Below are positions 10,591 through 42,347 of a stretch of 64,000 nt of DNA, one piece after another (position 1 is the stretch's first letter; each line of letters starts with the position of its first letter). The position numbers and the translations under genes were made by a program. The notes under the pieces are model-generated. The model searched no databases. It was not told the origin of the DNA and was given only the letters and a program-made list of their open reading frames with translations. Source of the stretch: Ignavibacteriota bacterium (GTDB taxonomy: Bacteria > Bacteroidota > Ignavibacteria > Palsa-1295); assembly GCA_963787835.1 (NCBI GenBank), contig CAWBEI010000002.1, positions 1,088,001 through 1,152,000 of the forward strand, given 5' to 3'.

Positions 10591-11034
10591 ATGCGAATTC
10601 TTTTACAACGGGTAAGTAGTGCTTCCGTGAGGGTGGGAGATGAGGTCGTGGGCCAAATAGGCCGCGGCCTGCTGGCTTTCATCGGAATTCGCGAGAGTGA
10701 CACCGAGGAAACAGCCAAATGGATGGCCGAAAAAGTCGAAAATCTGCGTATTTTCGAGGATCAGGACGGGAAGATGAATCTGTCGGTCAGGGAGATGGGT
10801 GGAAGCATCCTCGCCGTAAGCCAATTCACGCTTTATGGTGAAGCGTCCAAAGGCAACCGGCCAAACTTCCTGGCTGCCGCCGCACCGGATAAAGCCGAAA
10901 GGATCTATGAGATCTTGTTAGGTTATCTTGTGGCGCGGTTAGGGCCGGAAAAGGTCGCTTCGGGGCGCTTCCGTGCGAAAATGAAGGTCGAACTCGTGAA
11001 CGAAGGGCCGGTCACGATCCTGCTCGAACGGTAA
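10591..11034 (+). CDS. dtd: D-aminoacyl-tRNA deacylase
   Basis: QRVSSASV, SQFTL, KGNRP and NEGPVT motifs. Confidence 0.96.
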   Translation: MRILLQRVSSASVRVGDEVVGQIGRGLLAFIGIRESDTEETAKWMAEKVENLRIFEDQDGKMNLSVREMGGSILAVSQFTLYGEASKGNRPNFLAAAAPDKAERIYEILLGYLVARLGPEKVASGRFRAKMKVELVNEGPVTILLER

Positions 11035-11139
11035 CTGATTTCTTCTGTTCTTTTGTTGTTAACGGAGTTCGCCAGGGCGTAACGGTCTTGCTTTGGCACC
11101 TTGAATGCTTTTTCGTCAACATTAATAATCTTTTGTCCG

Positions 11140-13314: not shown

Positions 13315-13331
13315 TTTTTAGGGGATGAGGA

Positions 13332-15677: not shown

Positions 15678-15805
15678 TCATGGGCAGACTAAAATAATTT
15701 TTATTTTTTATTGTAATTAATCTCTCGTTCCGGGTTTATAGAGATGTGAATAGTCGGTCATTCACGGTGTTTTGGTAGTAAACGAGGCCGGAAAGGTCAT
15801 TTCCC

Positions 15806-18800
15806 ATGCATCATCATCCGAACATCTTTCATCGAAGTTCTCAATGCCCTCGGAGCATCGGGAAGCGTTCTCGTGTATCGCTATTTATTTCCGTGTTGGC
15901 AGTGCTCTCTGTTTTTTGCAGCACACGTCTTCGTGCCCAGAGCGCTAACTATGATAATTTCGGTAAGGAGTTTTATGTGGCGTTTGGACCCAATGAAGGA
16001 GGCGAAGGTGATCTTACCTCCGAGACTGTAATGGATCTCTACATTACGAGTCATGTAATTGCACATGGGGAAGTAGATGTCCCAGCGCTTAATTTTTATC
16101 AGACGTTTACCACTACTCCCGGGCAGATCACGACCATCGTGCTGCCGAATGGAAATAATTTCTCACCGACGGTCGAGGTCACTCAAGATCAACAAGTTCT
16201 ACCGGGGATGGCCGTTCATATCACGAGCGACAGCGAGGTCGCGGTGTTTGGTATGAATCACAAGTTGTATTCCAGCGATGCGTTCATGGGCTTGCCTACC
16301 AATGTGCTCGGCACGGAATATCGGACCATGAATTACCCATCCTCAGACAATCAGGGCGATGTGCAGCCTGGAATGTTTCTCATCGTAGCTGTTGTGGACT
16401 CGACCAATGTGACCATTACCCTTCGAGATGCTTCCACGGGTAGCCCCGCGGGTTTGCCGTTTAATATCCTGCTCGATAAAGGCGATGTGTATCTTGTAGA
16501 GGGTACGTATGACCTAAGTGATGATCTGACGGGCAGCTTGATAGAATCCGATGAGCCCATTGCCGTGTTTAGTGGCCACCATCGCACGGCGATCCCCGAT
16601 ACGGCCGTTAACATCGAGCGAGCTCCCAGCCGTGACCATTTGGTGGAGCAATTGCCGCCGGTAAGCGCCTGGGGCGATTCCGCGCTCGTTGTTCCCTATG
16701 CCACATCCATGTTACCCGATCTGGTTCGCGTTGTATGCGCTGAAGATAGCACGCAGATCTCCGTTAATGGAAAAATCATTCCGGGAACGTTCAATGCCGG
16801 TGATTTTTATGAAATCACTCACCTTGCCGGAGTGACCTCTATCCAGGCATCCAAGCCGATCGAGGTAGGCCAATTCATGCATACCAGTTTGGGAGCGTTG
16901 GGAGATCCGCGACTTCCGGCCTATGGCGATCCTGCGCTTGCACTTGTGTTCCCTGTCGAGCAATTTAAGAATGCTTATACCATTATTAGCATTGTCAATC
17001 CCGATGCCTTTACTGGAAATTTTGTGAACATCGTGGCCGATGCGAGTTCCATCGGTACAATGACGATCGATGGAGCGCCGATCGATCCGAATGAGTTTTA
17101 TTCCATCCCCAATACCCGCTTTGACTACGCGCAGCATCAGCTCCAGCAAGGGACGCATAATATTACAGGGAGCAGCCCCTTTGGGGTCACCGTGTACGCG
17201 CTCGGACCTGTCGATAGCTACTCCTACACTGGCGGTACGCTGCTCAAGACCATCACTCCGCTCGAAACCGTCGGACTGGTTATCGACTTCGGAGACCGCG
17301 TCCTTAATCCATCGAACCTCAAAGGCCCTCCGTTTGTCGGCGGAATCTTCGATACTACGGTCGTCTTGAGAAATATTTCCGAAGATACGGTGAATATTTA
17401 TTCCTTCCCAAAGCGTATTCAGGATACCGACCGATTTAACGTGGTTGCTACCACCCCTCCGTCAGGAGCTCCTGCGGGAATCGCGCCTGCGTTAACCATC
17501 CCGCCGCTCGGGGTTGATTCGTTCACGATACAGTTCCAGCCCCATGAGGTCAACCGCCGCATGCACACGCAGATCACAGCAAACACGGATCACCTCCGCG
17601 CGTATGTTGTCGATGTTTATGGTCGCGGTGTTGAGGACGATATGGGTCTTTTTGCAGATACCAATAAGACATTAAAGATCGACACTCTGAATTTTGGCAC
17701 CTTTACCGATCAGGATAACCCGGATGATTCCGAGATCTATGTCGGAAATGCCGGTTCGGACTCGATGCAAGTGAATGTGGTTTCGATCACCACGCACACG
17801 AGTCCTGACCCATTTTCTCAGATCGGAGCTAGCAATCACGGAGGAGCGGTTACGCTTCCATTCTCCATTGCCGCTGCTCCTTCCGCTCCGGCTCGTATTT
17901 CGCTTCGGTTCTCACCATTCGGAATGACAAAGGGTCTGTATTCCGATTCCATCCTTGTTACTTCAACCAGTATTGGCGATACTGCTGCCGACGGTGGGCC
18001 GCTTCAGAGCACGCATATCGTAGTGCTTATCGGTCGTGTCGATTCGATCGTAGGCCTTCAGACCGGGGTGGATACCGTTACCTGGGGAACCACAGAAGTG
18101 TGCTCCGACTCCGTATATCGAATTCTCATTCCTAATCCGAACGACCTTCCTGTGACTGTCACCTCCGCGAATATCATCGGCGTGAATGCTTCTGATTTTG
18201 TTCTCTCTACGAAAACGCCGCTCGTCATCCCTCCCGGACAGACGGACACCGTCCAAGTCAATTTCCTTCCTACTGCGCGGGGGATCAGAACCGCTCAGGC
18301 GATCCTCACCTACAATCTCCCCAAAAATGCTCCCATCGACACGGTAAACCTTTCGGGAACTGGTGACAAACCCACGCTCGAACTTGCTGCCAGCCAAACC
18401 TTGCACTCGTATATCCTTGACAATTATTTCCTCATGCCCATCTACGCGGTAACGAATATGGATATTATCGGGTGTGATGGGTACCACATTTATGTGCAAT
18501 ATGACTCGGTTCATCTCAAGCTGCTCGATGTCGTCACGGCCGGGACATTCACGCCGGGAGGCTATCTTTCGATTCAATCCTCTACGCCGCCGGGACATGA
18601 TACTATTAATTTCCAGCAGGGAGGGGAAGGAAGTACGATCGCTCCTGTGATCATCTCAGGCGGTGGCTGCAATCCAGGCGATTCCGGATGCCTTCCGCTT
18701 GTGTATCTAAAGTTTCAGGCCAGTACCGCTGGTGCAGACCCACTGACGTATGAGCAAGGGTTCCCGATCAATTTTACGATGACCTTCGATGATTCCCGTC

Positions 18801-19177
18801 TGCCCTACGCATGCGCCGATCACATCTTCGATAGCGGCTACGTCGTCATAGGGCCCATTTGCGATACCCAGTTCCTCGAGCAACAGCCCACCGTGCCATC
18901 TGCCATGATGCTCGGCACGCCGGTGCCAAACCCTGCGGGAACCGCAACAAGTAATAAGCCGACTTCCATTCAATATGATGTCGATACAGCAATACTCGTC
19001 ACTATTGATCTGACGGACGAGCAAGGTAATCGTGTCCAGACGCTGGTTAACGATGTCAGGACGCCGGGCTACTACACCACGACCGTCGATCCGGCTAATT
19101 TGCCCAGCGGACTCTATTACCTCCGTATGAGCGCCGGAGCCTATCAGAGGATCAGAAATCTCGTTATTCAAAAGTAA
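15806..19177 (+). CDS. Large secreted protein: IgGFc-binding domain, ASH/Ig repeats, cohesin-like domain, T9SS-type CTD
   Basis: DNFGKEFYVAF, SSDAFMGLP..LGTEY, DHLVEQLPPVSAWG and GDPAL motifs. C-terminal PNP...LPSGLYYLRM. Confidence 0.8.
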   Translation: MHHHPNIFHRSSQCPRSIGKRSRVSLFISVLAVLSVFCSTRLRAQSANYDNFGKEFYVAFGPNEGGEGDLTSETVMDLYITSHVIAHGEVDVPALNFYQTFTTTPGQITTIVLPNGNNFSPTVEVTQDQQVLPGMAVHITSDSEVAVFGMNHKLYSSDAFMGLPTNVLGTEYRTMNYPSSDNQGDVQPGMFLIVAVVDSTNVTITLRDASTGSPAGLPFNILLDKGDVYLVEGTYDLSDDLTGSLIESDEPIAVFSGHHRTAIPDTAVNIERAPSRDHLVEQLPPVSAWGDSALVVPYATSMLPDLVRVVCAEDSTQISVNGKIIPGTFNAGDFYEITHLAGVTSIQASKPIEVGQFMHTSLGALGDPRLPAYGDPALALVFPVEQFKNAYTIISIVNPDAFTGNFVNIVADASSIGTMTIDGAPIDPNEFYSIPNTRFDYAQHQLQQGTHNITGSSPFGVTVYALGPVDSYSYTGGTLLKTITPLETVGLVIDFGDRVLNPSNLKGPPFVGGIFDTTVVLRNISEDTVNIYSFPKRIQDTDRFNVVATTPPSGAPAGIAPALTIPPLGVDSFTIQFQPHEVNRRMHTQITANTDHLRAYVVDVYGRGVEDDMGLFADTNKTLKIDTLNFGTFTDQDNPDDSEIYVGNAGSDSMQVNVVSITTHTSPDPFSQIGASNHGGAVTLPFSIAAAPSAPARISLRFSPFGMTKGLYSDSILVTSTSIGDTAADGGPLQSTHIVVLIGRVDSIVGLQTGVDTVTWGTTEVCSDSVYRILIPNPNDLPVTVTSANIIGVNASDFVLSTKTPLVIPPGQTDTVQVNFLPTARGIRTAQAILTYNLPKNAPIDTVNLSGTGDKPTLELAASQTLHSYILDNYFLMPIYAVTNMDIIGCDGYHIYVQYDSVHLKLLDVVTAGTFTPGGYLSIQSSTPPGHDTINFQQGGEGSTIAPVIISGGGCNPGDSGCLPLVYLKFQASTAGADPLTYEQGFPINFTMTFDDSRLPYACADHIFDSGYVVIGPICDTQFLEQQPTVPSAMMLGTPVPNPAGTATSNKPTSIQYDVDTAILVTIDLTDEQGNRVQTLVNDVRTPGYYTTTVDPANLPSGLYYLRMSAGAYQRIRNLVIQK

Positions 19178-28616: not shown

Positions 28617-29489
28617 GTGCTTCGATATAAAGCTGACCGGCGCACGCTGGTCTTTATGGCCGCAACCACCGCGATGTTTTTCGCGCAGTGGGTATGGGGC
28701 TTTAACGTCGCGATCTATGTAGTCTATCTCTACCTTTCGATCGCCGTGACGGTCATCGCGCACAATCACAATCACATTCCGATCTGGCGCGGAAAGAAAT
28801 TGAACGCGCTTACCGATTATTGGCTGACGATCTTCTACGGGTTCCCGGCCTTCGCATGGATCCCAACGCACAACATGAACCACCATGCGCTAAACAATCG
28901 TGAGGGCGACTACACCATCACCTACCGCCTGACCGAGCACAATAATCTGCTGATGTTGCTTCTATACCCGACCGTCAGTAGTTATTACCAGCAAAAGCCG
29001 ATACGCGATTACCTCAAGCGGCAATGGGCGGAAGACAGGTCATACTACTGGCACTGCGTTTCACAATATATCCTCCTTGCCGTCTGGATTGCCGTGGCGT
29101 TGATCATCGACTGGAAAAAAGCGCTGCTCTTTGTCGTCATTCCGCAGCAGGTGGGGCTATTCAGCGTACTCATCTTCAATTTTGTTCAGCATGTTCACGC
29201 CGATGAAGAGTCCGAATGGAACCACTCTCGCAATTTTGTCGGGTTCCTGAACAAGATGCTATTCAATAATGGTTACCATACCGTGCATCATGAAAAAGCC
29301 GGCTTGCACTGGAGCAATGCGCCCGCTGCCCATGCCAAAGTTGCTTCCAAGATCTCTCCCGATCTACAGCAACCCGGATTCTGGAGCTTTATCTTCAAAT
29401 CCTATTTTCTCGGTATGGTTGTACCACGCTACCGCACACACTCGATGCGACTAGAGCGAATCGCCCGACAGAAACAGATCACTGTTTAG
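28617..29489 (+). CDS. Membrane fatty-acid desaturase family protein
   Basis: His boxes HNHNH, HNMNHH and HTVHH with TM segments. Confidence 0.88.
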   Translation: MLRYKADRRTLVFMAATTAMFFAQWVWGFNVAIYVVYLYLSIAVTVIAHNHNHIPIWRGKKLNALTDYWLTIFYGFPAFAWIPTHNMNHHALNNREGDYTITYRLTEHNNLLMLLLYPTVSSYYQQKPIRDYLKRQWAEDRSYYWHCVSQYILLAVWIAVALIIDWKKALLFVVIPQQVGLFSVLIFNFVQHVHADEESEWNHSRNFVGFLNKMLFNNGYHTVHHEKAGLHWSNAPAAHAKVASKISPDLQQPGFWSFIFKSYFLGMVVPRYRTHSMRLERIARQKQITV

Positions 29490-31698
29490 TAACGCTTTTG
29501 GTTTCCATCCGCCCAGCAAGATGGCAAACGACAAAATAGACTCCACTCGGGAGCGACTCAATCTCTATCGACGATGTCGTAAGTGCCGGAGCACTTGCAT
29601 CGAGAACCTCTCTGCCAATTACATCATAGATCGCGATCGAAGCAGGAAGCACATCATCGTTTTTCACGAACAGTTCGTCACCCGCCGGATTTGGGTACAC
29701 GGATATCTCTTGTGAAACAATTGAAACTTCTTCAACTCCGCTTTGCACTCCGAGTGTTTTTACTGCCCAATGATTATCCTCGTTGTCAGTGACGCAAAGT
29801 GAAATAGCCTGTCCGCCAATATAGATCGTTAAACTCGGGAGCACTACCCAACTCGACGAAAGCTGCGTTGAACTCGGGCGAAACAATGCCGTTCCAAGAT
29901 CGACCGGTTGCGTTGCGAATGAAGAGATATTCTGAATATCGAAATTCACGGTATTGCCCGTATGCGTTACGGAAGAAGTTACCCAGCCATTGGGAGCTAA
30001 ATACGATACATAGCTAACTAACGAAGAGTCCCAGGAATAGGTAGCCTGAATTTCAGTAATGTACGGCCATAAGGAATCAATATTGATCTGGGAGCTGAGA
30101 TCGACACCCAGCGTGAGCGAATCGAGATGCCCAAAGTATGACGAGGCGGACTCTCTATGAATTTGAGCCGGTTGCGATGTAAACGGCGTGCTCACTACGC
30201 CGATAAGCTGGATGGTAGTATCCTTTGCGCCGGAGCCGAGGTTATATTGCAAGTGCAGAAGCGCGGTATCTGGCCCATGCGTGCCGGCATAACTAACGAG
30301 AATACTATCCAATGTGGCAAGCGATCGCGGCTCGGATCGCGAATCTGTGATCTGAAATGCAGAGGAGCCGGTAAGCCAAATGGAATCAAGTTGGCAAGAG
30401 ATAAAGCTACATCCTAAGGTTTTCACGGGAATTGCTGTCTCAGAGGGAACGCAAGAGGACTGACTGATTTGTGAAACAGTCGGAATAGATAAAGTAGAAT
30501 TAGCCCCTTGGGAGAATGTATAGGTAATACTTTCACAGGTTGAGGTATAATCAAGCAAAGCCGCTTCGCACGTAAATAAATATACAGTGTTCAATTCGGT
30601 GCATTGCATCGTATCAAAAGATTTGATCATAATAGCAGCCTGAGAAGTTCGGTTAACGTTTGGCGCTGGCCCGATCCAGGATTTCCCCGTTTTAAGATCA
30701 ATTAAATCGCATGCTTCGACGGTTGGATAATCCCCGGGTATATCCAATCCACCAATAGTTATAATAGAGTCTCCTTGAACGTCGAAGGAAGAACCATAAT
30801 CATGGCCATAGGGTAAAAAACCTCCTGTGCTCCACGATAACGTCGTGGGGTTAAAAACCTGAACGCGTTTCGTTGTAGTCCGATTTTCATTGCGACCGGC
30901 CATCAGCGCAAAATTGCCTTCCGGCGTTTCTACAAGTTGATTATAACCCTCCTCTGCTTCTATCAAAGGACTAAGAAGTTTCCATTTAGAAGTGTTTAGA
31001 TCATAGAATTGAACGAGTCCAACAGGGTGTTCAAAAGAAAGTTGAAAGACTCCTCCTGCCGCAATAATCCCGTTCAGAGTTTTGGAATAGACCATTTCAT
31101 AGCCGTAACACGATGGCTGTGGATTATCAATCGTCGACATCGTCTCGGTTGCGGGGTCGAACTTTTCCGCTAAATTCGTCATATCGGAACTTGTTGAATC
31201 GGTCCCGCCTAGGATCAGAACCTTTCCATTGGGTAGGGTTATTGCTTCAAATTGAGTTCTGGTACGAGCCATGCTTGCAGTATATTCCCAAGTTCCTGAA
31301 GCTGGATCATAAATCTCACAAGTGTTTGTAGGATTAGAATTACTTAGTGTCCATCCGCCAGCAACAAAAATTCTCCCATCTTGCAGCGTTGCATGTGCGA
31401 ACCAAAATCGAGGAGTATTCAAACTACCGGTGATAGACCACGTATCGGACTTCGGGTCGTAAATCTCACATTCGTTTATTGCTGTGGGCTGTATTTCGCC
31501 ACCTATCAATAAAATCCTTCCATCGGGCAATAGAGCACAATCAGGGCGCTCTCTTGCAAGCAAAACAGGTGCAATATATTGCCAAGACTGCGCTTGAACC
31601 AAGTCCGTTCCAAAGAGCACAATGAAAAGCCCTATAAGAAAGCCGCGACACACAATTGCGCGGACGAAGCGCGAAGTACGTAATGAAGATTGCAACAT
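29479..31698 (-). CDS. Secreted Kelch-propeller protein + 1 stalk repeat + cohesin-like domain + T9SS-type CTD
   Basis: Kelch repeats (DGRILLIGG..EIYDP...W). C-terminal LCVTDNEDNHWAVKTLG..VYPNPA. Confidence 0.85.
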   Translation of the reverse strand: MLQSSLRTSRFVRAIVCRGFLIGLFIVLFGTDLVQAQSWQYIAPVLLARERPDCALLPDGRILLIGGEIQPTAINECEIYDPKSDTWSITGSLNTPRFWFAHATLQDGRIFVAGGWTLSNSNPTNTCEIYDPASGTWEYTASMARTRTQFEAITLPNGKVLILGGTDSTSSDMTNLAEKFDPATETMSTIDNPQPSCYGYEMVYSKTLNGIIAAGGVFQLSFEHPVGLVQFYDLNTSKWKLLSPLIEAEEGYNQLVETPEGNFALMAGRNENRTTTKRVQVFNPTTLSWSTGGFLPYGHDYGSSFDVQGDSIITIGGLDIPGDYPTVEACDLIDLKTGKSWIGPAPNVNRTSQAAIMIKSFDTMQCTELNTVYLFTCEAALLDYTSTCESITYTFSQGANSTLSIPTVSQISQSSCVPSETAIPVKTLGCSFISCQLDSIWLTGSSAFQITDSRSEPRSLATLDSILVSYAGTHGPDTALLHLQYNLGSGAKDTTIQLIGVVSTPFTSQPAQIHRESASSYFGHLDSLTLGVDLSSQINIDSLWPYITEIQATYSWDSSLVSYVSYLAPNGWVTSSVTHTGNTVNFDIQNISSFATQPVDLGTALFRPSSTQLSSSWVVLPSLTIYIGGQAISLCVTDNEDNHWAVKTLGVQSGVEEVSIVSQEISVYPNPAGDELFVKNDDVLPASIAIYDVIGREVLDASAPALTTSSIEIESLPSGVYFVVCHLAGRMETKSVTKQ

Positions 31699-31725
31699 TG
31701 TCTTATTACATTATTCAGAATTTAT

Positions 31726-33753
31726 TTACTGCACTTTATTAACTCGAAACGTTGTAACCCTGTCTCCAATATGTCCCACAAGCACATACGAACCCTGCGC
31801 GAGCCCTGCTATATTGATGGAACCCGTCGAACCCGCAAGAACATTCCCGCTAGCCACCTCTCTGCCGATCACATCATAGATCGCGATCGAAGCAGGAAGC
31901 ACATCATCGTTCTTCACGAACAGCTCATCACTCGCCGGGTTGGGAAATACTTCCAACTCTTCGCCACCTTTTGGGAGAGGCTGGGTGAGGGGAGTGACTC
32001 CGCTTTGCACTCCCAGTGTTTTCACCGCCCAGTGGTTATCTTCGTTATCGGTTACGCAGAGTGAAATTGCTTGTCCACCAACCTCAAGAGTTAGACTCGA
32101 TAATTGCACCCAACTCGATGCAAGTTGCGATGAACTTGGCCTAAATAACGCTGTGCCAAGATCCAGCGGTTGCATTGGGGAAGAAAAATTGTTCTGGATC
32201 TCAATATGGGCAGTGGTATCAGTATGATTAATGGCAGATATTAACCACCCCGTTGGTTGCATATAGGAGGCATAAGCGACGACCGAAGAATCCCAGGTAT
32301 AATCGGCTTTAATGTCGGAGATATGTGGCCACAAAGAATCGATATTAATTTGCGAGTTAAGATCGACTCCAAGCAGGAGAGAATCAAGCTGACCGTAATA
32401 TGCCGAGGCGGATTCCCGATGAAGTTGTGCGGAGTGTGCTGCTAACGCCGAAGATACGAAACCAATAAGTTGGGTGGTGGTATCTTTTATGCCTGCACCA
32501 ATATTATATTGAAGATGCAGGATCGAAGTATCTGATCCCTGCGTACCATCGTAACGAACAAGAATGCTATCGACTGTGCTAAGTGTTCGCGGAGTGGGTC
32601 GGGGATCAGACAATTGAAATGCTGCGGAACCGGAGAGCCAAAGTGAATCGAGCGTGCCGGTGGGAATTCCGCATCCAACAAGTCCTATTCCGAGAAATGT
32701 ATCGACCGGGGTACTACAAATAGTGTGATTGAGAATGGATGATCGAGAAGGAATAATGAGTGCAGAAGCAGAGGAATTTTGCGCGGTCGCGATCGAATCG
32801 CCTCCGCTATTATCCGTGCGCCACACATTGCCGGCATCATCGACGGCTAACAAAATATTATCATTGATCGCGGCGATCAGCCGCGTATCGAAAGTTACGG
32901 ACGGGCCTCCGATCGAACTCCACGTCACACCATGATCTGTCGAGCGATACACCCCGTTTGAAGTAGATGGACAATAGATAGTTGTTGTTCCCTCCGCAAT
33001 CGAACCGCTAAAAAAGGGTTCCGGCTCGGAAGCCGTTACTTGCCAAGTAGTTCCGAGATCTGTTGTAAGATAGATCTTGGAATATTGATCCGTCCGAACG
33101 GCTCCATCCTCATGGCTTACGTATATTCGATTAGGGTCGCATGAATCGATGGCAAATGAATATGAATCCTGATCAAAACCTGATTTCGTTTGTTGCCATG
33201 ATAATCCAAAGTCCGTGCTGAAAAAAATATAAGCTGGGTCTCCGCTTCCGCCGGACTGATAAATAGTCCCATTCTTATATCTCACGCAAAGTTTGTATTG
33301 TTGTGTGGGTATGTTCCTCCAATTATTTCCACCATCCAAAGTGACTCCAACAGTACTTGCATCCTTACAGGCAAGAGCGATACTATTAGAGTCATTAAGA
33401 AAACAACCGCTGGCTGCGGCTTGTGATAATATTTGCCAGCTTGTTCCACCGTTTCTGGTAATCCAGGCATTGCTGGTGCCTGACAAAACGCCATTCATGG
33501 AATTAAAAAATTGAATATCATATGGCTCATCCGGAAGCGGTTTCTTGATCCATGTAATTCCTGTATCTGTTGAAATGTAGAGTGCATCTGAAGCGATCCA
33601 GACCGTCCCATTCTGAAAGCACATCGCGCCGAACCATTGAGAAAGTATTGTCAAGTTTGGCGCAACGATCCTCCATTGTGCATGAGTGTTACTTGCTGCT
33701 ACCGTGAGAAATAGCATCGCGAACCACAAATTTTTTAATGAGTAAAAACCCAT
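31726..33753 (-). CDS. Secreted BNR/Asp-box beta-propeller protein + 1 stalk repeat + cohesin-like domain + T9SS-type CTD
   Basis: Repeated S/T-x-D/N-x-G-x-x-W boxes and the shared C-terminal module. Confidence 0.85.
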   Translation of the reverse strand: MGFYSLKNLWFAMLFLTVAASNTHAQWRIVAPNLTILSQWFGAMCFQNGTVWIASDALYISTDTGITWIKKPLPDEPYDIQFFNSMNGVLSGTSNAWITRNGGTSWQILSQAAASGCFLNDSNSIALACKDASTVGVTLDGGNNWRNIPTQQYKLCVRYKNGTIYQSGGSGDPAYIFFSTDFGLSWQQTKSGFDQDSYSFAIDSCDPNRIYVSHEDGAVRTDQYSKIYLTTDLGTTWQVTASEPEPFFSGSIAEGTTTIYCPSTSNGVYRSTDHGVTWSSIGGPSVTFDTRLIAAINDNILLAVDDAGNVWRTDNSGGDSIATAQNSSASALIIPSRSSILNHTICSTPVDTFLGIGLVGCGIPTGTLDSLWLSGSAAFQLSDPRPTPRTLSTVDSILVRYDGTQGSDTSILHLQYNIGAGIKDTTTQLIGFVSSALAAHSAQLHRESASAYYGQLDSLLLGVDLNSQINIDSLWPHISDIKADYTWDSSVVAYASYMQPTGWLISAINHTDTTAHIEIQNNFSSPMQPLDLGTALFRPSSSQLASSWVQLSSLTLEVGGQAISLCVTDNEDNHWAVKTLGVQSGVTPLTQPLPKGGEELEVFPNPASDELFVKNDDVLPASIAIYDVIGREVASGNVLAGSTGSINIAGLAQGSYVLVGHIGDRVTTFRVNKVQ

Positions 33754-33765
33754 AAATTCAAATTC

Positions 33766-35547
33766 TTAATGATTCCTAACCACCCTAAGAGAATTTATTC
33801 CCGCTGAAGTTTTCACCAAAAGATTATACACTCCATCCGCATCGGGAAGAGTCAGTTCAATAGGATTATCCTTGGTGATATTGGCTTCGGTCTTGCCTCG
33901 CTCAACTCCAAGCAAATCATAGATCTCGATCGTAACATTACCGAGGTCGTCGCTCGAATAGATCCAAACATTGCCGTTCGCCGGATTGGGATAGACTGTA
34001 ATATCCTGCGAAACGGTCGGAACTTCGGTAACTCCGCTTTGTACCCCAAGTGTTTTTACTGCCCAATGATTATCCTCGTTGTCGGTCACGCAGAGGGGAA
34101 GCGACTGACTGCCAATATCAACAACAAAATTTGTTAAGTTCACCCAACTGGTTGCCAGTTGTGGCGAACTCGGACGAAATAGCGCCGTACCCAAATTCAT
34201 CGGTTGCTCCGGAGATGACCCGGTGTTTTGAATATTAATATCGACGAAAGTATTATGATTTGCAAGGCCGTTCAGTGTCCAGCCGGAAGGCGGAAGATAA
34301 CCGGCATATTTTGCGACTGAGGAATCCCAGGTATAGGTGAACTGAATATCAGAAATATACGGCCACAAGGAGTCGATATTTATTTCCGAGTTGATATCGA
34401 CACCAAGCATAAGCGAATCGACCTGTTCAAAATACGAAGATGCAGCTTCGCGATGAAGTTGTGAAGGAACTCCTGTGGCACCAGATCCGAACGAATATTC
34501 ATAGAGGGAACCGTTCGGCTGATCGTCGAACCCGTAAAGATTTATTCCGTCGCACCCATTTAGGACAGAGAATCGTGTATCATTGTGAGCACTGGGACCC
34601 CCGATGCTTGTCCAAGTTACTCCTTGGTCTGTAGAAAAGTAAAATCCATTGTAAGTAACTCCACCAATCGTATTGTTAACGTCCTGGACCTGGAAGAAAA
34701 GATATTGCTCGCCAAGACCGGCAAAATGTCCCGTGGAAACAAAAGGAAAATTTGCGAGTGGGTTCCAATTGACTCCATAATCCGTTGATCGATAGATTTC
34801 CAGGTTATAGGGCTCGCCGTTAGTATATCCTTCCGGTGCAGCATAAAAATTCGAAGTTCCGGAATCGTCATAAACAGACCAGGACTCGATGTTCATGTTT
34901 GAATTTTGCCATGTGACACCGCCATCCGAGCTGTATAGCCAACTTTCTCCACGGTAACAACTAATTACGCCATGCATCGGGTCAATAAAATCTACGCAAT
35001 TTGTGCTGTTAATGAAACCATCTGAAAAGGTGTTGCCGCCATCGGTTGAGATGTGTCCATTACCAATAATGTCAGTTACGATCATTGCATTCGGGGTTAT
35101 CTGAACAGATGTTCCGGAGCCAACGAGTCGTGTTTCTTCCCATGTCAGGCCTCCGTCCGTTGTTTGCCAAAGTGCTTTGTTCCCACTGCCACCCCACGCA
35201 GTCATGGCGAGCCACCCATGCAAAGGGTCCACCATAATAAGGTCCCCGATCTGACCTCCATATCCACCCGGAATGGATGCTTTTATCCATGTTTTCCCAC
35301 CATCAGTGGTTTTATCAAGTTCAACCGGACCGCTCAAATTCTTGCCCGGGCTCACTCCAAGTCCGACGAAGCCGGTATTGGCATCAAGAAATTTCGCGAG
35401 GCAGATATAGCCATCAAAAGTTCCTATCCTCTTCCATGATTGAGCCTGTACCGAACCAGCTCCTAAAATGAAAATAATAGGTAACAAAAAGCGGATACAA
35501 AGCATACGTTCAAACAAAAACCTCATTATATTTTGACGGTGATTCAT
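33766..35547 (-). CDS. Secreted BNR/YCF48-like beta-propeller protein + cohesin-like domain + T9SS-type CTD (no stalk repeat)
   Basis: TTDGGKTW, TTDGGLTW, SSDGGVTW and STDQGVTW boxes, plus the shared C-terminal module. Confidence 0.85.
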   Translation of the reverse strand: MNHRQNIMRFLFERMLCIRFLLPIIFILGAGSVQAQSWKRIGTFDGYICLAKFLDANTGFVGLGVSPGKNLSGPVELDKTTDGGKTWIKASIPGGYGGQIGDLIMVDPLHGWLAMTAWGGSGNKALWQTTDGGLTWEETRLVGSGTSVQITPNAMIVTDIIGNGHISTDGGNTFSDGFINSTNCVDFIDPMHGVISCYRGESWLYSSDGGVTWQNSNMNIESWSVYDDSGTSNFYAAPEGYTNGEPYNLEIYRSTDYGVNWNPLANFPFVSTGHFAGLGEQYLFFQVQDVNNTIGGVTYNGFYFSTDQGVTWTSIGGPSAHNDTRFSVLNGCDGINLYGFDDQPNGSLYEYSFGSGATGVPSQLHREAASSYFEQVDSLMLGVDINSEINIDSLWPYISDIQFTYTWDSSVAKYAGYLPPSGWTLNGLANHNTFVDINIQNTGSSPEQPMNLGTALFRPSSPQLATSWVNLTNFVVDIGSQSLPLCVTDNEDNHWAVKTLGVQSGVTEVPTVSQDITVYPNPANGNVWIYSSDDLGNVTIEIYDLLGVERGKTEANITKDNPIELTLPDADGVYNLLVKTSAGINSLRVVRNH

Positions 35548-35581
35548 ACTTTCCTCCTTGCATATATCGCTACCGACTCAT

Positions 35582-38500
35582 CTATTGAATTTTGCTAATT
35601 CTTCGAGCGATCATGCGATCACCAATGTGACAGACAAGCACATACGAACCCTGCGCGAGCCCTGCGATATTCATGGAACCCGTCGAACCTCCAAGAACAT
35701 TCCCGGTAGCCACCTCCCTGCCGATCACATCGTAGATCGCAATCGAAGCCGGAAGCGCATCATCATTCTTCACGAACAATTCATCGCCTGCCGGATCGGG
35801 GTAGACGGAGATACCCTGCACTTGGGGTGGAGAATCCTCCACAGCGGCTGTAAGCCCCAGTGTTTTTACTGCCCAATGATTATCCTCGTTATCGATGACG
35901 CAGAGGGAGTTCGTTTGATTCCCAATCGTCAGCAGGAGCCGTGGCATTGTTACCCAGCTCGTGGCGGGTTCGGAGGATTTCGGACGGAACACCGCCGTAC
36001 CGAGATCGAGCGGGTTTTGTGCCCTCCCCGTGCTGTTGTGGATCTCAAAATCGAACGAACTTGCGTGTGCCGTAAAGGATACCAGCGTCCATGGAGTTGG
36101 CGGTAAATACTGCACGGCGCTAACCACGTTCTGGTCGAACGCACACGTCCCCTGAATATCGGTCACTAAGTTCCAAAGAGAATCGAAATTGACCGAGGTA
36201 CTAATATCGAGTTGAAGGGGAAGCGAATCGAGCCCGTCGTAATACGCGGATGAGGATTCCCGGCGCATGTGCGCCGGCTGTGCAAGCAATGGTGACGCCA
36301 CCGTGCCGATCACCGTAAGCACGGTATCCTGCGGGCCAGAACCGACATCGTACCGAATATGCAACTCCGCAGTATCCGAACCACCTCCGTTGGGCGAATA
36401 CAAGACACCGATACTGTCGTTGATCAGCAGCGATCGTGGAACGGAACGGGTATCGCTGATCTGCAGCGTTGGCGACCCGGTAAGCCACACTGAGTCCAGT
36501 TCCCCATTTGCGAGCGGACAGCCGGTAACGCCGATGCGAAGACCTGTATCCGATCCGCCGCAGGACTTGGAAAGGATGCTTTCTACCAAAGCCGGAAGCA
36601 GGATCGCCGGAGGGGGCAGCGGATTCATGACGGTGCCGATCACCGTGATGGTCGTATCTTGCACACCCGAGCCAAGATCATATCTAAGATGCAAAACGGC
36701 GGTATCCGGAGCGGTCGCGCCGGGCAGATATTGTAACTGCACACTATCGAACGAGCCAAGTCCGCGCGGCACGCCGCGAGTGTCACTGATATGGATGGCG
36801 GGTGATCCGACAAGCCATGCTGAATCCAAACGGCCGCCGGAAATGAGGCATCCTGTGACCCAGAGTGAAATGGGAATCGAGAGTGGTACACACGTCGCTT
36901 GTACTATTTGTGGCGATGGCGCCGTTTCAAGCGTCACCGAACGAACCGATGTAGCAAGTGTGCCGATCAGTGTTATGATCGTATCGCGATCCCCGGAACC
37001 TGTGTTATAGACAAGATGGAGATACGTCGTATCCAACCCGGGAGGCGTTGGTGCGTAAACGATGCGAACGCTGTCGACCGAATCGAGTGCGCGAGGAGTC
37101 TTGCGCAGATCGGCTATGCTAAACGCCGATGATCCGGTCATAAATGCGTTCACTAAGGTTACGCCCGGACATCCCGTACCTCCCAACCGGAACGAAGTAT
37201 CCTTGACATTACAGACCGTATCAAGCACAGACTCCGTCGTTGGAGCAAGGAACAGTGTGTTAGAGGTATTTTTAGAAAAACCTATCAGTGTAATAACCGT
37301 ATCCCTGGAACCGGAACCAAGATTATACTGCAGATGGAGGTAGGATGTATCGGCGCCCGGCGGAGTGGGCGTAAAGACAAGATTAACGCTATCGAGCGAA
37401 TCCAGCACACGTGGTATACCGCGCAGATCCACAATATGGAATGCAGAGGAACCAGTGATCGAGGCACTCTCGAGCGTTACGCCCGGGCAGCCGGTCCCGC
37501 CAAGATAGAAGGAAGTATCTTCCGGTTTACCGCACGTCGTATCCAAAACCGATTCAGTTGTGGTGGAAAGGGATAGTGTGGAGGCTCCTGCGGATGTGGC
37601 TTCGGTAATAATATTAGCTGCTGCCTGGGACATCACCCATGATGGCTCAAGTGTAGCCGTATTCGTTGATGGATTCAACCGCTGCTGCATTGCAACGACG
37701 TATGTTGTGTTATCTGGATCTATTGTAAGTGCATAGGACCATTGATTCTGGGAGTAACCACCGACGGTTCCTGTAATTTGCCAGGGATTTGTCCCAACTT
37801 TTGTGTAGATTCGGATAGAATCCCCATCTCCGGTACCGTGGAGCGTTAATGGGTTGACCGGAGTATGGGATGTATCAGTGGATAGACCGCGATATGTCGT
37901 GGCTGTGTTTGGTAAGATGGAAGGATTATTACTAATAGGGCCATCGAAGCGGACTCGGCCATCGCCCCCGCTCCCATTATCAGCATGAGTGTGTAAAGAA
38001 ATCCCTCCTGCAGCAGAGATGGAAGGGAACACACTATTCAATTTTGCTTCTATGGTTAGCCCACCTCCACTTCCGCAGCCTCCAACTGATCCATGATTTA
38101 CACAGCCAAATCCACCAGTGACCCCGCTTTCACCATTAACCTGAACCGAGGCGCTTGGACCAGTAATCTGAGCTGAAAAAAGACACACTCCTCCTCCTCC
38201 TCCGCCCGCAGATGCACCAGGAGTCGAGTTATCTTCATCACAGGAACAGAACTCATTTCCACCTCCTCCACCGCTTCCGCCCATCAGAGGTACCAGCATT
38301 GGATTTCCATTGACAATTCCACCCTGATCATCGTAATTGCCCCGCTCTCCTCGACCGTTTTCACCAATTGTACCGAAACCTCCTCCATTACCGTCGCCCT
38401 CATGTTTGTCATGAGTGACAACCCCACCGCCCTCAGAGATAAATGGATTTCCTGTGCCGCCGTAATACTCGCAATTGGGATTTGCGTCACTTGGCTCTGG

Positions 38501-39367
38501 AACAATCTGATTAAGGCCAATTCCGCCTCCATTTACATCTCCAGTTCCTCCAGTTCCTGTGCCTCCAGTTCCAGAACATGGAGCACCATCTCCAGATTCT
38601 CCCGGCGCTCCGCCGACAAATCCATCGCCACCGGGATAGATAACGGGTCCATCGCCCATACTTCCACCACCACCACCTGGACCCCCGTTTTTTCCGCTTG
38701 CACTTCCAGATAGCATTGCGCCAGAAGCAAGTGTAATATTACCTTTGGAGAGGATCACTGCAGGCAAATACCCTTGATTTCCGATCGTCGAGGGATCACA
38801 ATCGGACGTCGAAATAGTATAAGTTCCGGAATCTAATGAAATGCTGTCAAAAATAAGTGCTCCGCGCTTTGAACGGACACCCCACTGGCCACCACTTCCC
38901 AAAACGCCACCGCCCGAAACAACAAGGGCAGGATTTGGTTGAACAATAAAGAATGTGTCGCTATTAGAAGCGACCCCATTAACAAGGACCTTAAGTGGGA
39001 TCGAAAAATCGGGGCCAACTTGATTCCATTGTGAAGAATTTGGCTCTGGACAGGGAGCAATGAATATTTGCGTAGAAATGACACGTCCTTGCCAGCTGAC
39101 AACGATCGGTCCAATAGTAACTTTCGAAGTATCTGAAGAATTCGTACAAACGACCCTCACGTTATCGCCGGGGTTATTGGAGTAGGATCCATCGGAGCCA
39201 AACTGGCCAGTGGCGTTATAGGGTCCAATCATTTCCATGTAGGTATTCATCCCGGGTGTGCCAATATCGGGAATGATGTAAGAGATGACCGGGGCCTGAC
39301 CAAAAGCCCTCAGCGGTAAGACAACCACGCTAAGAAATGCGAACGAGACGGAAACGAATTTATGCAT
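35582..39367 (-). CDS. Secreted Gly-rich protein + 4 stalk repeats + cohesin-like domain + T9SS-type CTD
   Basis: Signal peptide from MHKFVSV, poly-Gly region, four DT..LHL.Y..GSG..DT.ITxIG repeats, LCVIDNEDNHWAVKTLG, VYPDPA. Confidence 0.85.
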   Translation of the reverse strand: MHKFVSVSFAFLSVVVLPLRAFGQAPVISYIIPDIGTPGMNTYMEMIGPYNATGQFGSDGSYSNNPGDNVRVVCTNSSDTSKVTIGPIVVSWQGRVISTQIFIAPCPEPNSSQWNQVGPDFSIPLKVLVNGVASNSDTFFIVQPNPALVVSGGGVLGSGGQWGVRSKRGALIFDSISLDSGTYTISTSDCDPSTIGNQGYLPAVILSKGNITLASGAMLSGSASGKNGGPGGGGGSMGDGPVIYPGGDGFVGGAPGESGDGAPCSGTGGTGTGGTGDVNGGGIGLNQIVPEPSDANPNCEYYGGTGNPFISEGGGVVTHDKHEGDGNGGGFGTIGENGRGERGNYDDQGGIVNGNPMLVPLMGGSGGGGGNEFCSCDEDNSTPGASAGGGGGGVCLFSAQITGPSASVQVNGESGVTGGFGCVNHGSVGGCGSGGGLTIEAKLNSVFPSISAAGGISLHTHADNGSGGDGRVRFDGPISNNPSILPNTATTYRGLSTDTSHTPVNPLTLHGTGDGDSIRIYTKVGTNPWQITGTVGGYSQNQWSYALTIDPDNTTYVVAMQQRLNPSTNTATLEPSWVMSQAAANIITEATSAGASTLSLSTTTESVLDTTCGKPEDTSFYLGGTGCPGVTLESASITGSSAFHIVDLRGIPRVLDSLDSVNLVFTPTPPGADTSYLHLQYNLGSGSRDTVITLIGFSKNTSNTLFLAPTTESVLDTVCNVKDTSFRLGGTGCPGVTLVNAFMTGSSAFSIADLRKTPRALDSVDSVRIVYAPTPPGLDTTYLHLVYNTGSGDRDTIITLIGTLATSVRSVTLETAPSPQIVQATCVPLSIPISLWVTGCLISGGRLDSAWLVGSPAIHISDTRGVPRGLGSFDSVQLQYLPGATAPDTAVLHLRYDLGSGVQDTTITVIGTVMNPLPPPAILLPALVESILSKSCGGSDTGLRIGVTGCPLANGELDSVWLTGSPTLQISDTRSVPRSLLINDSIGVLYSPNGGGSDTAELHIRYDVGSGPQDTVLTVIGTVASPLLAQPAHMRRESSSAYYDGLDSLPLQLDISTSVNFDSLWNLVTDIQGTCAFDQNVVSAVQYLPPTPWTLVSFTAHASSFDFEIHNSTGRAQNPLDLGTAVFRPKSSEPATSWVTMPRLLLTIGNQTNSLCVIDNEDNHWAVKTLGLTAAVEDSPPQVQGISVYPDPAGDELFVKNDDALPASIAIYDVIGREVATGNVLGGSTGSMNIAGLAQGSYVLVCHIGDRMIARRISKIQ

Positions 39368-39430
39368 CGGAATGAAGACTAATTCATTGCATTGTACAAC
39401 CCACAATCATGGCGAAGGTTCCGAAATAAT

Positions 39431-40756
39431 TTATACCTTTCTTTGAATGGAAAAGAGTCCTCGCAAATGATTGGAAACATCGCTAAAACCACGGGTTAGA
39501 AGCAGTTTCCGATCGAATCCAACATGCTTTTGCATGTATGCATACAGTTGCGCAGTCTGGACCGCCGAAGCTGCAACAAAGGCGATGGCTGCGCCGATAA
39601 GCTGATGTGTAATTGCAAGCATGGTCGAAGCGAATACGACATTGACGACGAGGGTTATCGTGAACATACGAAAAGCTTCCTTGATCTTTCCCATCCCCGT
39701 CATCGAAACACCAAACACCATTTGGAGGGGAAAGAAAAGTACCGAAATTAATAATACTCGAAAGATAGGAATGCTTGCGTCAAATTTTACTCCATATAGC
39801 AGATGAAAAAGGAACGGAGCGCCAATATCGAGTAAGATCCCAAGAGGGATCAGTCCCAGGAATAAGAAGCTAACGCTCTTTTCTATGATGGTTCGAAGCG
39901 TTTGAATTTCTCCGCGTGAATGATATTTACTGGTGGCTGGAAAAACAAAAAGTGTCATTGTTTCACGAATGACGTCGAATCCACGAAACAGCATTTTCGC
40001 TCCGTTGTACATGGCTACTCCAATGGCGCCCGTAAACCCCGATACGATCAATACATCGAAATTCTGTTGAGCGGTCGAGACCACTCCCATTGCTGCTTGA
40101 TACCGAACAAATTCCGATATACGCATGAGCATCTTACGAGAATATTTTACGCGGTATCGCAGATACGGTCGAACCAGAATAATTGCAGTTAATGAGGAGA
40201 GCAGGCCGGAAAGCATAGTAATGCGAATCACGTTCTCCGCGCTGTGAAGTTTTCCCATCAATAGCAAGAGGAAGAGCGCAATACTTGCAACTCCAAAATT
40301 TGCAAAATCCACAAAGAAGATCTCTTTCATCCTAAATTTTGATTGCAGCACCTTACTGAGCACCACTCGTGGCATGGTAAACACCGCAAAGATTGCCAGA
40401 TAAGGAATCAGATGTCCTAATTGCGGGATGTTCAGCAAGCCACTGAACGTATCGGGGAACATTAGCAGAAGAGCCAATGCAGTACCAAGGAATGCAATAA
40501 ACAATAAGGTGGTGACGGTGACGAGCTCTTCCAGTTCTACCTCCGGTTCTACGCCGAACTTCACGATGGCCTGCAACGCAAATCCATCAGAGAAGGTGAA
40601 CAGGATCGTGAAGAGGGTCTGAAATACGCTGAGGATCCCAAATTCCGTTGGTGCAATGGAACGAGCCACCATTATTAAGGCGAATGCATAAGGAATGGGA
40701 AGTCCTCGTGAGGCAAAGGCCCATAGTCCTTTTCCAAGATGGCTACTAAATCTCAA
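39431..40756 (-). CDS. Oligosaccharide flippase (Wzx/MATE-like polysaccharide biosynthesis protein)
   Basis: About 12 TM segments. VARSIAPTEFG, NFDVLIV and LYGVKF patterns typical of Wzx. Start is non-ATG. Confidence 0.85.
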   Translation of the reverse strand: MRFSSHLGKGLWAFASRGLPIPYAFALIMVARSIAPTEFGILSVFQTLFTILFTFSDGFALQAIVKFGVEPEVELEELVTVTTLLFIAFLGTALALLLMFPDTFSGLLNIPQLGHLIPYLAIFAVFTMPRVVLSKVLQSKFRMKEIFFVDFANFGVASIALFLLLLMGKLHSAENVIRITMLSGLLSSLTAIILVRPYLRYRVKYSRKMLMRISEFVRYQAAMGVVSTAQQNFDVLIVSGFTGAIGVAMYNGAKMLFRGFDVIRETMTLFVFPATSKYHSRGEIQTLRTIIEKSVSFLFLGLIPLGILLDIGAPFLFHLLYGVKFDASIPIFRVLLISVLFFPLQMVFGVSMTGMGKIKEAFRMFTITLVVNVVFASTMLAITHQLIGAAIAFVAASAVQTAQLYAYMQKHVGFDRKLLLTRGFSDVSNHLRGLFSIQRKV

Positions 40757-40877: not shown

Positions 40878-42347
40878 ATGAAATCGTTCGTTAAGCTTTT
40901 CTTCGTTGTTTCTTTAATCTTGGTTCCTTTCGTTTCGGTCGCGCAGACGTGGCAATACACGGGTGCTCTTAGTGAGCCAAAGCGAACGGGAGTGCTTACC
41001 ACGCTTCCGAACCAAACCGCGATCTATGTCGGTGGCGCGGACGCTAATGGCTTTCCACTAACAACCTGCGAGATCTATAATCCGGCCACGACATCCTGGA
41101 CGCTTGCCGCTCCGCTGGCGGTGGGTGTCGAAAGACATACCGTTACTCAGCTCGCAGATGGACGTTTGGTTGTGATCGGTGGTAATACATCGATGGATTA
41201 CGATGAAAGTCAGCCCACCGGAGCGATCGAGATCTATGATTATACCACGAATACATGGTCAAATGGGGGAACACTCTCAATTGCGCGGCAAAACCATTCA
41301 TCAACGTTGCTCTTAGATGGTAACATTCTCGTAGCGGGAGGGTACACTGGGGGAGATGTTACTTCATCCGTGGAAATTTATGATCCTTCCACACAAACAT
41401 GTAGAAGTGTTGCACCACTAATACTTGCTCGTCACGATCATTCTGCAATACTACTTAATGATGGAAGAGTATTAGTAGTTGGAGGACGAGATGGCGGCTC
41501 CAGTAGTAACTATTTTAACGAATGCGAAATTTATGATCCCACGTCAGATACCTGGACGGTGATCGGTAATATGATCCAGGCTCGAATTAAGGGATCTTTG
41601 GCTACCTTCAGTGACGGGACTGTGCTCGCATCTGGTGGAAGGAATACACCGAATACTTCTGCTCCGGGATCTGAAGTATTAACGGGAACATTTTCTTTGT
41701 GGAATGCCACCTCTCCGATGCTCGTGCCCATGACTTGGAATGGAAGCGCACTATTACCTCAAGACCGCTTTTTAGTAACAGGAGGTCTTGTGGATGCCGA
41801 TTGGACTAACTCCTTCACCGGGGATATGACGCCAACCTGTGAATGGTATGATAAACCGAATGAACGCTGGTTTTTTGCTCCGCAATTAAATCTGCAGAGG
41901 AGTTATCACGGGCAATGTTATATGCACCAGACGGTCAACGATACGCTTCCTCAGGACATGGTCTTAGTGGCTGCCGGCATTACGGGGGACTACACTTTTA
42001 CGCAAACCGCTGAAATTCTGGATGTTACTGACCATGCGCTCCAAGCATACAAAGAAATGCCGCAAAACTTGGCTACAGTTAATTCTCCATCCAATTTACT
42101 TGATGCAAGTGTCGTAATGCAATCGCCCGGTCAAGCTTTGCTCCAACTCTCTTTAGGCGCTAATTCCGATGTTAGGGTGGATATCATCTCTTCGGCAGGC
42201 GAAACACTCTCCACGACCGAAGAAGAGCTATCTTCAGGCAGCTATGCTTTGCCCTTGATCGTATCGAACAATGTGTCGGGAATTTATTTTGCTCGTGTCA
42301 ATGTAGGCGGGGTGAATACTCTTCTAAAGTTTGCGATACTTAAGTAA
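40878..42347 (+). CDS. Secreted Kelch-repeat protein with T9SS-type CTD
   Basis: Signal peptide ending VAQ, Kelch repeats (LLDGNILVAGG..EIYDP), C-terminal SGIYFARV..KF. Confidence 0.85.
   Translation: MKSFVKLFFVVSLILVPFVSVAQTWQYTGALSEPKRTGVLTTLPNQTAIYVGGADANGFPLTTCEIYNPATTSWTLAAPLAVGVERHTVTQLADGRLVVIGGNTSMDYDESQPTGAIEIYDYTTNTWSNGGTLSIARQNHSSTLLLDGNILVAGGYTGGDVTSSVEIYDPSTQTCRSVAPLILARHDHSAILLNDGRVLVVGGRDGGSSSNYFNECEIYDPTSDTWTVIGNMIQARIKGSLATFSDGTVLASGGRNTPNTSAPGSEVLTGTFSLWNATSPMLVPMTWNGSALLPQDRFLVTGGLVDADWTNSFTGDMTPTCEWYDKPNERWFFAPQLNLQRSYHGQCYMHQTVNDTLPQDMVLVAAGITGDYTFTQTAEILDVTDHALQAYKEMPQNLATVNSPSNLLDASVVMQSPGQALLQLSLGANSDVRVDIISSAGETLSTTEEELSSGSYALPLIVSNNVSGIYFARVNVGGVNTLLKFAILK

Follow-up and report, generated by a model that had tools for sequence, protein, structure and literature searches.

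Four neighbouring genes on the minus strand of a 64,000-nucleotide stretch of contig CAWBEI010000002.1 (the window; assembly GCA_963787835.1, Ignavibacteriota bacterium) encode secreted proteins assembled from a small set of parts: a variable N-terminal head, zero to four stalk units, a shared base domain and a C-terminal signal for secretion by the type IX system (T9SS). We consider it rather probable that the array is T9SS cargo with exchanged parts, and that its products are surface binding proteins, similar to fibrillar adhesins, on stalks predicted to be O-glycosylated. This reading builds on the architecture of the four proteins, the folds of their domains as models, the mosaic ancestry of the parts, a locus content that is specific to each genome, and the presence of SprA and PorU. 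The locus shows how a T9SS cargo repertoire of about 256 open reading frames (ORFs) varies, with heads, spacers, base and secretion signal recombined. Named homologs of the array proteins belong to Candidatus Kapabacteria, which to our knowledge are common, uncultured and almost unstudied at the cell surface.

Architecture and distribution of the array

The four genes, labelled A to D, have the following organization (CTD, C-terminal domain).

29479..31698, minus strand: gene A, 739 amino acids; signal peptide, Kelch propeller head, 1 stalk, cohesin-fold base, T9SS CTD
31726..33753, minus strand: gene B, 675 amino acids; signal peptide, BNR propeller head, 1 stalk, cohesin-fold base, T9SS CTD
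33766..35547, minus strand: gene C, 593 amino acids; signal peptide, second BNR propeller head, no stalk, cohesin-fold base, T9SS CTD
35582..39406, minus strand: gene D, 1274 amino acids from TTG (1261 from the in-frame ATG at 39367); Gly-rich head, 4 stalks, cohesin-fold base, T9SS CTD

An earlier sequence-only reading of this DNA had described four co-oriented, closely spaced genes, and the ORFs agree, with gaps of 27, 12 and 34 nucleotides (nt) for A/B, B/C and C/D. It ended the array at 39367, which is indeed an in-frame ATG of D, but the ORF reaches TTG 39406. Its stalk counts of 1, 1, 0 and 4, and its shared domain before a T9SS tail, are borne out by profiles and CTD cut-offs. The four members it counted stand; it missed a fifth, paralog E, which lies elsewhere in the genome (G000:C2:701485-704997, plus strand) and has a Kelch head on five stalks. 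G000 denotes the genome under study (3.57 Mb), and labels G001 to G014 denote genomes of relatives.

Neither base nor stalk has a Pfam or NCBIfam match at E ≤ 0.1 in the four proteins, and two domain families missed by current libraries are thus defined here. The family profiles score 215-265 bits on the bases and 110-147 bits on the stalks, and among 9,438 genome ORFs only five (A-D and E) match the base profile, so that the shared domains are not a chance resemblance. The base alignment matches 13 of 14 other genomes of the genus, mostly in several copies each, matches weakly in 11 of 15 genomes of other genera in the same family, and matches none of the 177 genomes of other families in the class sample. 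Only 61 relatives were found at E ≤ 0.001 among 1.84 billion representatives. As judged by such sequence matches, the array family is genus-restricted.

Mosaic ancestry and variation of the locus

The sequences indicate that heads, stalks, base and CTD have been reshuffled between paralogs, and mosaic ancestry is seen in several pairs. D and E have unrelated heads, but their last stalk and base share 85-100% DNA identity (91% and 97% amino-acid identity, respectively), which falls to about 52% at the CTD junction. In B and D it is the CTD that is alike (90-93%), against 37-62% identity in stalk and base. Among homologs, P0010 joins a Kelch head to a base 88% identical to that of B and a CTD 87% identical to that of A, and P0006 carries a BNR head on a base 96% identical to that of D. 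Different codons are used at 38 of 140 residues shared by D and E, so this exchange is not recent. Head class switches 28 times along a tree of 70 bases, where the minimum is 8 and the shuffled mean 37.6; bootstrap support of this tree is not fully settled, and two headless fragments are uncounted. Sister pairs starred on the tree carry unlike heads. The mixing of heads with tails that the sequence-only reading proposed is thus upheld.

The stretch downstream of a flippase gene, which adjoins the array, differs in all seven genomes compared. These are the 7 of 12 fetched regions that held the flippase locus, and the regions were chosen by family hits. The content of each locus is given below as head and stalk number.

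G000: Gly-4, BNR-0, BNR-1, Kelch-1
G001: LamG-Gly on another base, BNR-1, BNR-1
G002: BNR-1, BNR-0, BNR-0
G003: LamG-4
G004: BNR-2, Gly-4
G006: Gly-1, Gly-4, BNR-1, fragment, BNR-1
G014: three BNR-1

Some array genes, in L078 (G006:C4) and L080 (G001:C1), are split across frames and may be pseudogenes or assembly errors. Separately, one contig of sequencing run X2 (depth 3.1) joins the CTD of D to that of B (window 31777 / 35634), skipping 3,856 bp across a 32-nt identical stretch. The joint may stem from a recombination deletion within the population or from chimeric assembly, and for the latter reason it was left out of the evidence.

Modelled cohesin fold of the shared base

The base domain comprises 145 amino acids with 46-69% identity among A-D, and the motif DNEDNHWAVKTLG is found in all four proteins. 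The positions of the bases and of the motif in B are as follows.

29743..30177, minus strand: A cohesin-fold base, fold by homology to the B model
32005..32439, minus strand: B cohesin-fold base, modelled; best match 2vo8
34039..34473, minus strand: C cohesin-fold base, by family profile
35849..36283, minus strand: D cohesin-fold base, close to the base of paralog E
32011..32061, minus strand: conserved motif LCVTDNEDNHWAVKTLG in B, covering the loop before strand 9 and strand 9 of the cohesin fold

A structure model of B residues 335-675 (47 sequences; pLDDT 82.4; predicted template-modelling score, pTM, 0.52) was compared with 48,161 solved chains. The top 14 chains for the base are all cohesin entries. 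The best is 2vo8, a module of a GH33 protein of C. perfringens (Z 13.4; root-mean-square deviation, rmsd, 2.5 over 131 residues; 11% identity), and Foldseek agrees with a TM score of 0.72. In the model, the shared domain has a cohesin fold, i.e. a nine-stranded jelly-roll, as the sequence-only reading had suspected. That reading had allowed for the domain being a known Pfam family; PF00963 (Pfam Cohesin) gives no match in the four proteins at E ≤ 0.1, and the base is not among the eight PF00963 matches of the genome. Sequence links between the base and these PF00963 domains or other pre-CTD families are weak (hhalign P 0.4-47%, best hidden Markov model link 22 bits), so the other pre-CTD families are called cohesin-like by pattern only. 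An atlas look-up gave only leads under 0.9; in its two leading clusters, 14% and 19% of the members have cohesin.

Base residues conserved at 90% or more are His111, Asp130, Asp138, Ser139, Trp141, Cys232, Glu237, Asp238, His240 and Trp241 (model numbering). Of 69 bases, 66 have the pattern C-x4-E-D-x-H-W and 30 the exact 13-mer; in distant members the motif decays to C..E[DG]..W. A role of the motif as a DNA-level element or recombination site was ruled out, with synonymous codon identity like that in the rest of the domain: 0.58 in the motif and 0.63 elsewhere in the base for two-fold codons, and 0.34 and 0.32 for four- to six-fold codons (52 in-register of 58 sequences). The constraint thus acts on the protein and not on the DNA. 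The invariant cluster may serve structure or metal binding.

In the fold, the motif falls within the loop between strands 8 and 9, at the border of the 8-3-6-5 sheet. Strands 8-3-6-5 form the dockerin plateau of cohesins, and the strand 8-9 loop approaches the dockerin in those of R. flavefaciens (PMC5429695). Polar columns of the base are less conserved on this sheet than on the other (entropy 2.12 for 8-3-6-5 and 1.48 for 9-1-2-7-4; 21 columns per sheet, with 91 of 99 sequences left by a 90% filter and strands numbered by analogy without coordinates). A homodimer prediction for the base (score 0.05, mark 0.42) carries no weight either way.

Stalk units and predicted O-glycosylation

30175..30480, minus strand: A stalk unit, ASH/choice-of-anchor D-like Ig
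32440..32748, minus strand: B stalk unit, model matches VesB/CEP192/Hydin ASH-type Ig
36281..37561, minus strand: D stalk units 1-4 (37256-37561, 36938-37240, 36611-36919 and 36281-36589), each with about four D-S/T-hydrophobic sequons

Stalk units are 35-91% identical to each other. Matches of the modelled stalk are the Ig domain of VesB (Z 9.2, rmsd 3.0 over 96 residues) and CEP192/Hydin-type repeats, and the stalk profile aligns with 33 choice-of-anchor D (NF012200) domains of the genome at P 95.2% and E 2.6e-8 (reversed control 0.6%). By profile and model, the stalk is a divergent member of the described ASH/choice-of-anchor D Ig family; it scores on neither NF012200 nor the Pfam ASH models PF15780/PF22544, for which it is too divergent. 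Two conserved Cys residues are present in 70 of 77 stalks. Stalk number differs between paralogs and species (0-5); contigs of four sequencing runs, with patchy cover, contain no stalk-skipping joint. The repeats within D and within E are 50-71% identical in DNA, so stalk length is not rapidly tuned. The "tunable distance" of the sequence-only reading therefore holds on an evolutionary scale and not as a rapid process.

The O-glycosylation sequon of Bacteroidota is D-S/T-(A/I/L/V/M/T) (PMC8729774; PMC8550257), and the most conserved stalk residues are D-S/T pairs. The 11 stalks of the genome hold 46 sequons D[ST][AILVMT], or 5.8 times the shuffled expectation; enrichment is 2.9-fold in the five bases and 1.4-fold, the lowest, in the five heads. 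Across the genome, with compartments assigned by a crude hydrophobicity rule, mature T9SS cargo (256 proteins) contains 2,077 sequons against 677 expected (3.07-fold), compared with 1.98-fold in 366 other signal-peptide proteins, 1.01-fold in 702 cytoplasmic-like ORFs and a depletion to 0.30-fold in the CTDs. Six control patterns range from 0.78- to 1.08-fold in cargo. Enrichment is also found in 12 homologs of the D head that have PKD/CHU_C tails (2.8-fold), which makes it a wider Bacteroidota trait. The array stalks are thus predicted to be O-glycosylated at D-S/T sequons, and dense O-glycosylation is predicted for the Kapabacteria lineage.

Heads

30514..31590, minus strand: A head, Kelch beta-propeller, residues 37-395
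32779..33678, minus strand: B head, BNR/Asp-box propeller, conserved Glu, Asp and Arg outside the Asp boxes
37592..39298, minus strand: D head, with predicted TIG/IPT (38936-39298), Gly-rich core (37895-38935) and FN3-like domain (37592-37894)

The sequence-only reading gave the heads as Kelch, two BNR and Gly-rich. Pfam and NCBIfam agree for A (Kelch) and for B and C (BNR); the D head has no match at E ≤ 0.1. Models of the D head match TIG/IPT (Z 9.7) and FN3-like (Z 8.8) domains. Its Gly-rich core has no solved match in Foldseek or VIA-align, in a low-confidence model in which the core was not folded alone; we take a polyglycine II bundle as a guess only. In the atlas look-up the D head falls in unnamed clusters, with leads under 0.9. 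The core is widespread in T9SS proteins of the Bacteroidota group (277 hits), and among the best 120 of these the D head widely accompanies stalks of the ASH, PKD and Ig kinds and tails of type A or CHU_C.

The diversity of heads that the sequence-only reading expected is extensive: 98 heads of at least 150 amino acids form eight unrelated groups (51 BNR, 28 Kelch, 8 Gly-rich, 4 IgGFc-binding, 2 SBBP/DUF7948, 2 LamG, 2 unknown and 1 other). Heads are conserved by class across species at 50-75% identity. In 48 BNR heads, Glu203 and Asp277 are conserved at 100% and Arg279 at 94%. The best solved sequence matches of the B head are GH74 xyloglucanases (E 1.2e-7), which cover only about 85-95 residues of Asp-box repeats; sortilin scores alike. 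Kelch heads have no His conserved at 85% or more, so a copper-oxidase site is not evident. LamG and IgGFc-binding heads occur on the same tail in relatives. Of 22 genome paralogs above 100 bits on the BNR head profile, 2 have the array base and 16 have other cohesin-like pre-CTD domains. The heads are diverse but come from a common pool, and they are not tied to the array base.

At least 16 further BNR-head T9SS proteins are encoded in the genome (e.g. G000:C6:184089-193153, C2:290009, C2:1020993 and C3:305334). Their other cohesin-like pre-CTD domains end in a Cys...Cys-Gly-x-x-x-Leu pattern, and four such genes form a tandem array on C6.

Secretion signals and T9SS machinery

All four proteins end in a T9SS type A CTD above the TIGR04183 and PF18962 cut-offs, and the model of the B tail matches the T9SS CTDs 8gl6, 8glj and 5ag9.

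31729..31953, minus strand: B T9SS type A CTD, 90-93% DNA identity to the CTD of D over about 120 nt

At the N-termini, a hydrophobic leader is followed by AQA-Q, THA-Q, VQA-Q and AFG-Q; read by eye, these would be Sec signals with a mature Gln start (Q-rule). The genome encodes the PorU sortase (723.6 bits) and the SprA translocon, both over cut-offs, so an established anchoring route is available. PorU cleaves the CTD, and the cargo is then released or attached to A-LPS (PMC10202324). By this route the base would become the membrane-proximal domain, with no dock needed. At least 150 TIGR04183 matches are present in the genome (of 253 candidates, 150 scored), and a CTD profile made in this analysis finds 256 ORFs. 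Besides the full PorU, there are two PorU-like genes below cut-off (listed loci G000:C3:289826-293161, C2:1621799-1626136 and C3:449470-453955).

Proposed function and alternative explanations

The favoured explanation combines established T9SS steps with roles suggested for each part. The proteins would be exported by Sec and fold in the periplasm, where the ASH-type Ig stalks, presumed to act as spacers, may be O-glycosylated at their D-S/T sequons. In line with established T9SS biology, the CTD would direct translocation and PorU would remove it, with the cargo released or the new C-terminus attached to a surface glycolipid. The base would be a membrane-proximal structural domain. Propeller and Gly-rich heads on 0-5 spacers may recognise glycans or proteins carried by soil particles, other cells or prey, and recombination among the shared tails at the tandem locus may renew the set over evolutionary time, as the mosaic ancestry suggests. 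Several points weigh against this explanation. The conserved Glu203, Asp277 and Arg279 of BNR heads also fit an enzyme. A passive spacer role would leave the invariant polar cluster of the base unexplained, and the pTM of the B stalk-base model does not support a rigid junction. Head class is more clustered on the base tree than expected by chance. Part of the sequon enrichment could be due to beta-strand capping, and S and T rarely replace each other at the five stalk sequon columns. Finally, C has no stalk, and 53 of 70 tree homologs (four main head classes) have 0 or 1, so that most members are short and not fibrillar.

In an alternative explanation, the heads, above all the BNR propellers, would be surface-displayed enzymes (glycoside hydrolase-like or other) that stalk and base only position. 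The conserved BNR residues, the GH74 matches of the B head, the GH33 origin of the closest structural match of the base, and the precedent of X82 cohesin and FN3 modules in clostridial hydrolases are consistent with this; however, the GH74 match is confined to Asp-box repeats that sortilin matches equally, no enzyme family cut-off is reached in the four proteins, the Kelch heads lack a conserved His, and IgGFc-binding and LamG heads sit on the same tail. We regard displayed enzymes as unlikely. A variable glycoprotein coat is quite improbable: glycosylated stalks and bases would shield against phage, predators and drying, and head turnover would be recognition escape or largely neutral recombination. 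The genome-wide sequon enrichment in cargo, the 256 CTD proteins in a 3.57 Mb genome, the flippase beside the array and the heptosyltransferase-like gene adjoining paralog E fit such a coat, and O-glycans on T9SS cargo have been proposed as the dominant surface polysaccharide of T. forsythia (PMC8729774). The split genes of G006 and G001 would fit as well, but may be assembly errors; the heads have the fewest sequons, and their conservation by class across species points to head-specific functions.

The sequence-only reading took the base as a common docking or anchoring module. A true docking module, whose His/Arg/Glu/Asp/Trp/Cys cluster binds a dockerin substitute, a metal-bridged partner or an outer-membrane receptor for non-covalent display, appears quite doubtful. 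It would account for the modelled cohesin fold, for a motif that is nearly invariant at the protein level, for the position of this motif in a loop that lies near the dockerin in R. flavefaciens cohesins (PMC5429695), and for a family of 61 relatives, which fits a lineage-specific interaction. The search for dockerin-like partners that the reading proposed found PF00404 in none of 30 family genomes and no dockerin pattern among 9,438 ORFs; a divergent partner would escape both. Furthermore, the 8-3-6-5 sheet is the less conserved one, the motif decays in distant members, the same heads occur on other bases without it, no conserved small partner gene flanks the family loci, and PorU gives anchoring. 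A recurring 120-amino-acid gene after family members was ruled out as a partner of the base, as it reads as a response-regulator receiver. Also unlikely, in our view, is the broader proposal that dockerin-free cohesin-fold domains form an interaction code of Kapabacteria, in which the invariant cluster (His-Arg-Glu / Asp-Ser-x-Trp / Cys-x4-Glu-Asp-x-His-Trp) serves as a site for a metal or a partner and so docks several different heads, held on glycosylated spacers with a set length, to a surface receptor or to each other. If it were true, the sister cohesin-like families would be parallel docking specificities, with cellulosome-like logic without dockerins.

Comparison with known systems

Polymorphic toxins have a tandem locus in which a constant part is joined to swapped variable parts, with a variable C-terminal toxin and an adjacent immunity gene. 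The array likewise has constant and swapped parts at a tandem locus; however, its variable part is N-terminal and its C-terminus constant, family searches detected no toxin domain in its proteins, and the gaps of 12-34 nt leave no room for immunity genes. The sequence-only reading saw here the reverse polarity of polymorphic toxins, but the layout is the ordinary head-stalk-anchor order of fibrillar adhesins (PMC8286594). Both have a terminal head, a variable tandem beta-sandwich stalk and free combination of heads and stalks; a signal peptide and a CTD would place the array proteins, like fibrillar adhesins, outside the cell with an anchor, the anchor signal being the C-terminal T9SS domain. 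The array differs in its propeller and Gly-rich heads, its ASH-type Ig stalk, the cohesin-fold base before the CTD and the many members with 0-1 stalk. The word cohesin does not occur in PMC8286594 or PMC9210967.

Choice-of-anchor D/ASH T9SS proteins of Kapabacteria and Ignavibacteria (NF012200, PF15780, PF22544) have a homologous stalk with the VesB/CEP192/Hydin Ig fold, and the genome has 104 NF012200 matches at E ≤ 0.1. Array stalks differ by scores below these models, by their two conserved Cys residues and by denser sequons (4.1 vs 1.4 per 100 amino acids). The cargo of Tannerella forsythia (TfsA/TfsB and others) is O-glycosylated and similarly rich in D-S/T-hydrophobic sequons (PMC8550257; PMC8729774), where the array glycans are predicted from sequence alone. 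Periscope proteins also vary in repeat number under similar heads, but their repeats are highly identical in DNA and fast-changing, as opposed to 50-71% identity between array units (Whelan et al., PMC8201768).

Non-cellulosomal cohesins (C. perfringens X82 2vo8 and 2w1n; A. fulgidus 2xdh) and cellulosomal type I cohesins share the nine-stranded jelly-roll with the base (Z 11-13.4, rmsd 2.5-3.8), and clostridial hydrolases also contain a single cohesin inside a secreted multi-domain protein. Compared with these, the base has 6-15% identity, no PF00963 score, no genome with a dockerin among 30, and conservation that is not centred on 8-3-6-5; it gives a clear example of the cohesin fold in genomes where no dockerin is detectable. 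T9SS-linked cohesins with dockerins have been inferred in Cloacimonadota (PMC8542988). By the comparisons applied here, the array falls outside cohesin-dockerin systems, Periscope proteins and polymorphic toxins. In the literature searched, which excluded subscription journals and supplements, no description of the array family and no publication linking Kapabacteria with glycosylation were found. Within that literature the family is undescribed, as the sequence-only reading supposed, with the qualification that its stalk belongs to a described Ig family and its general design is known. The gain is a new family and the question of what its invariant cluster does; a new mechanism would follow only if a docking partner were found.

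Neighbouring genes and other secreted proteins in the window

28617..29489, plus strand: fatty acid desaturase, convergent; bounds the locus downstream in 4 of 7 genomes compared
39431..40756, minus strand: Wzx-like polysaccharide flippase, immediately upstream of the array; in relatives it marks this same variable locus

The flippase serves here only to mark position. No shift of a glycoprotein was seen in a wzx mutant of P. gingivalis (PMC8729774). The organism is taken to be a soil Kapabacterium: the four sequencing runs containing the stretch are soil metagenomes of one study, and no RNA run is among those listed as containing it.

Beyond the flippase lies a gene for a stand-alone Kelch-propeller T9SS protein (window 40878-42347, plus strand), which some relatives have at this locus and others lack. 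Secreted proteins are also encoded in a second cluster (window 8333-19177, plus strand): three are IgGFc-binding T9SS proteins, and one is a multi choice-of-anchor D protein (13332-15677, no CTD detected); comEC follows directly.

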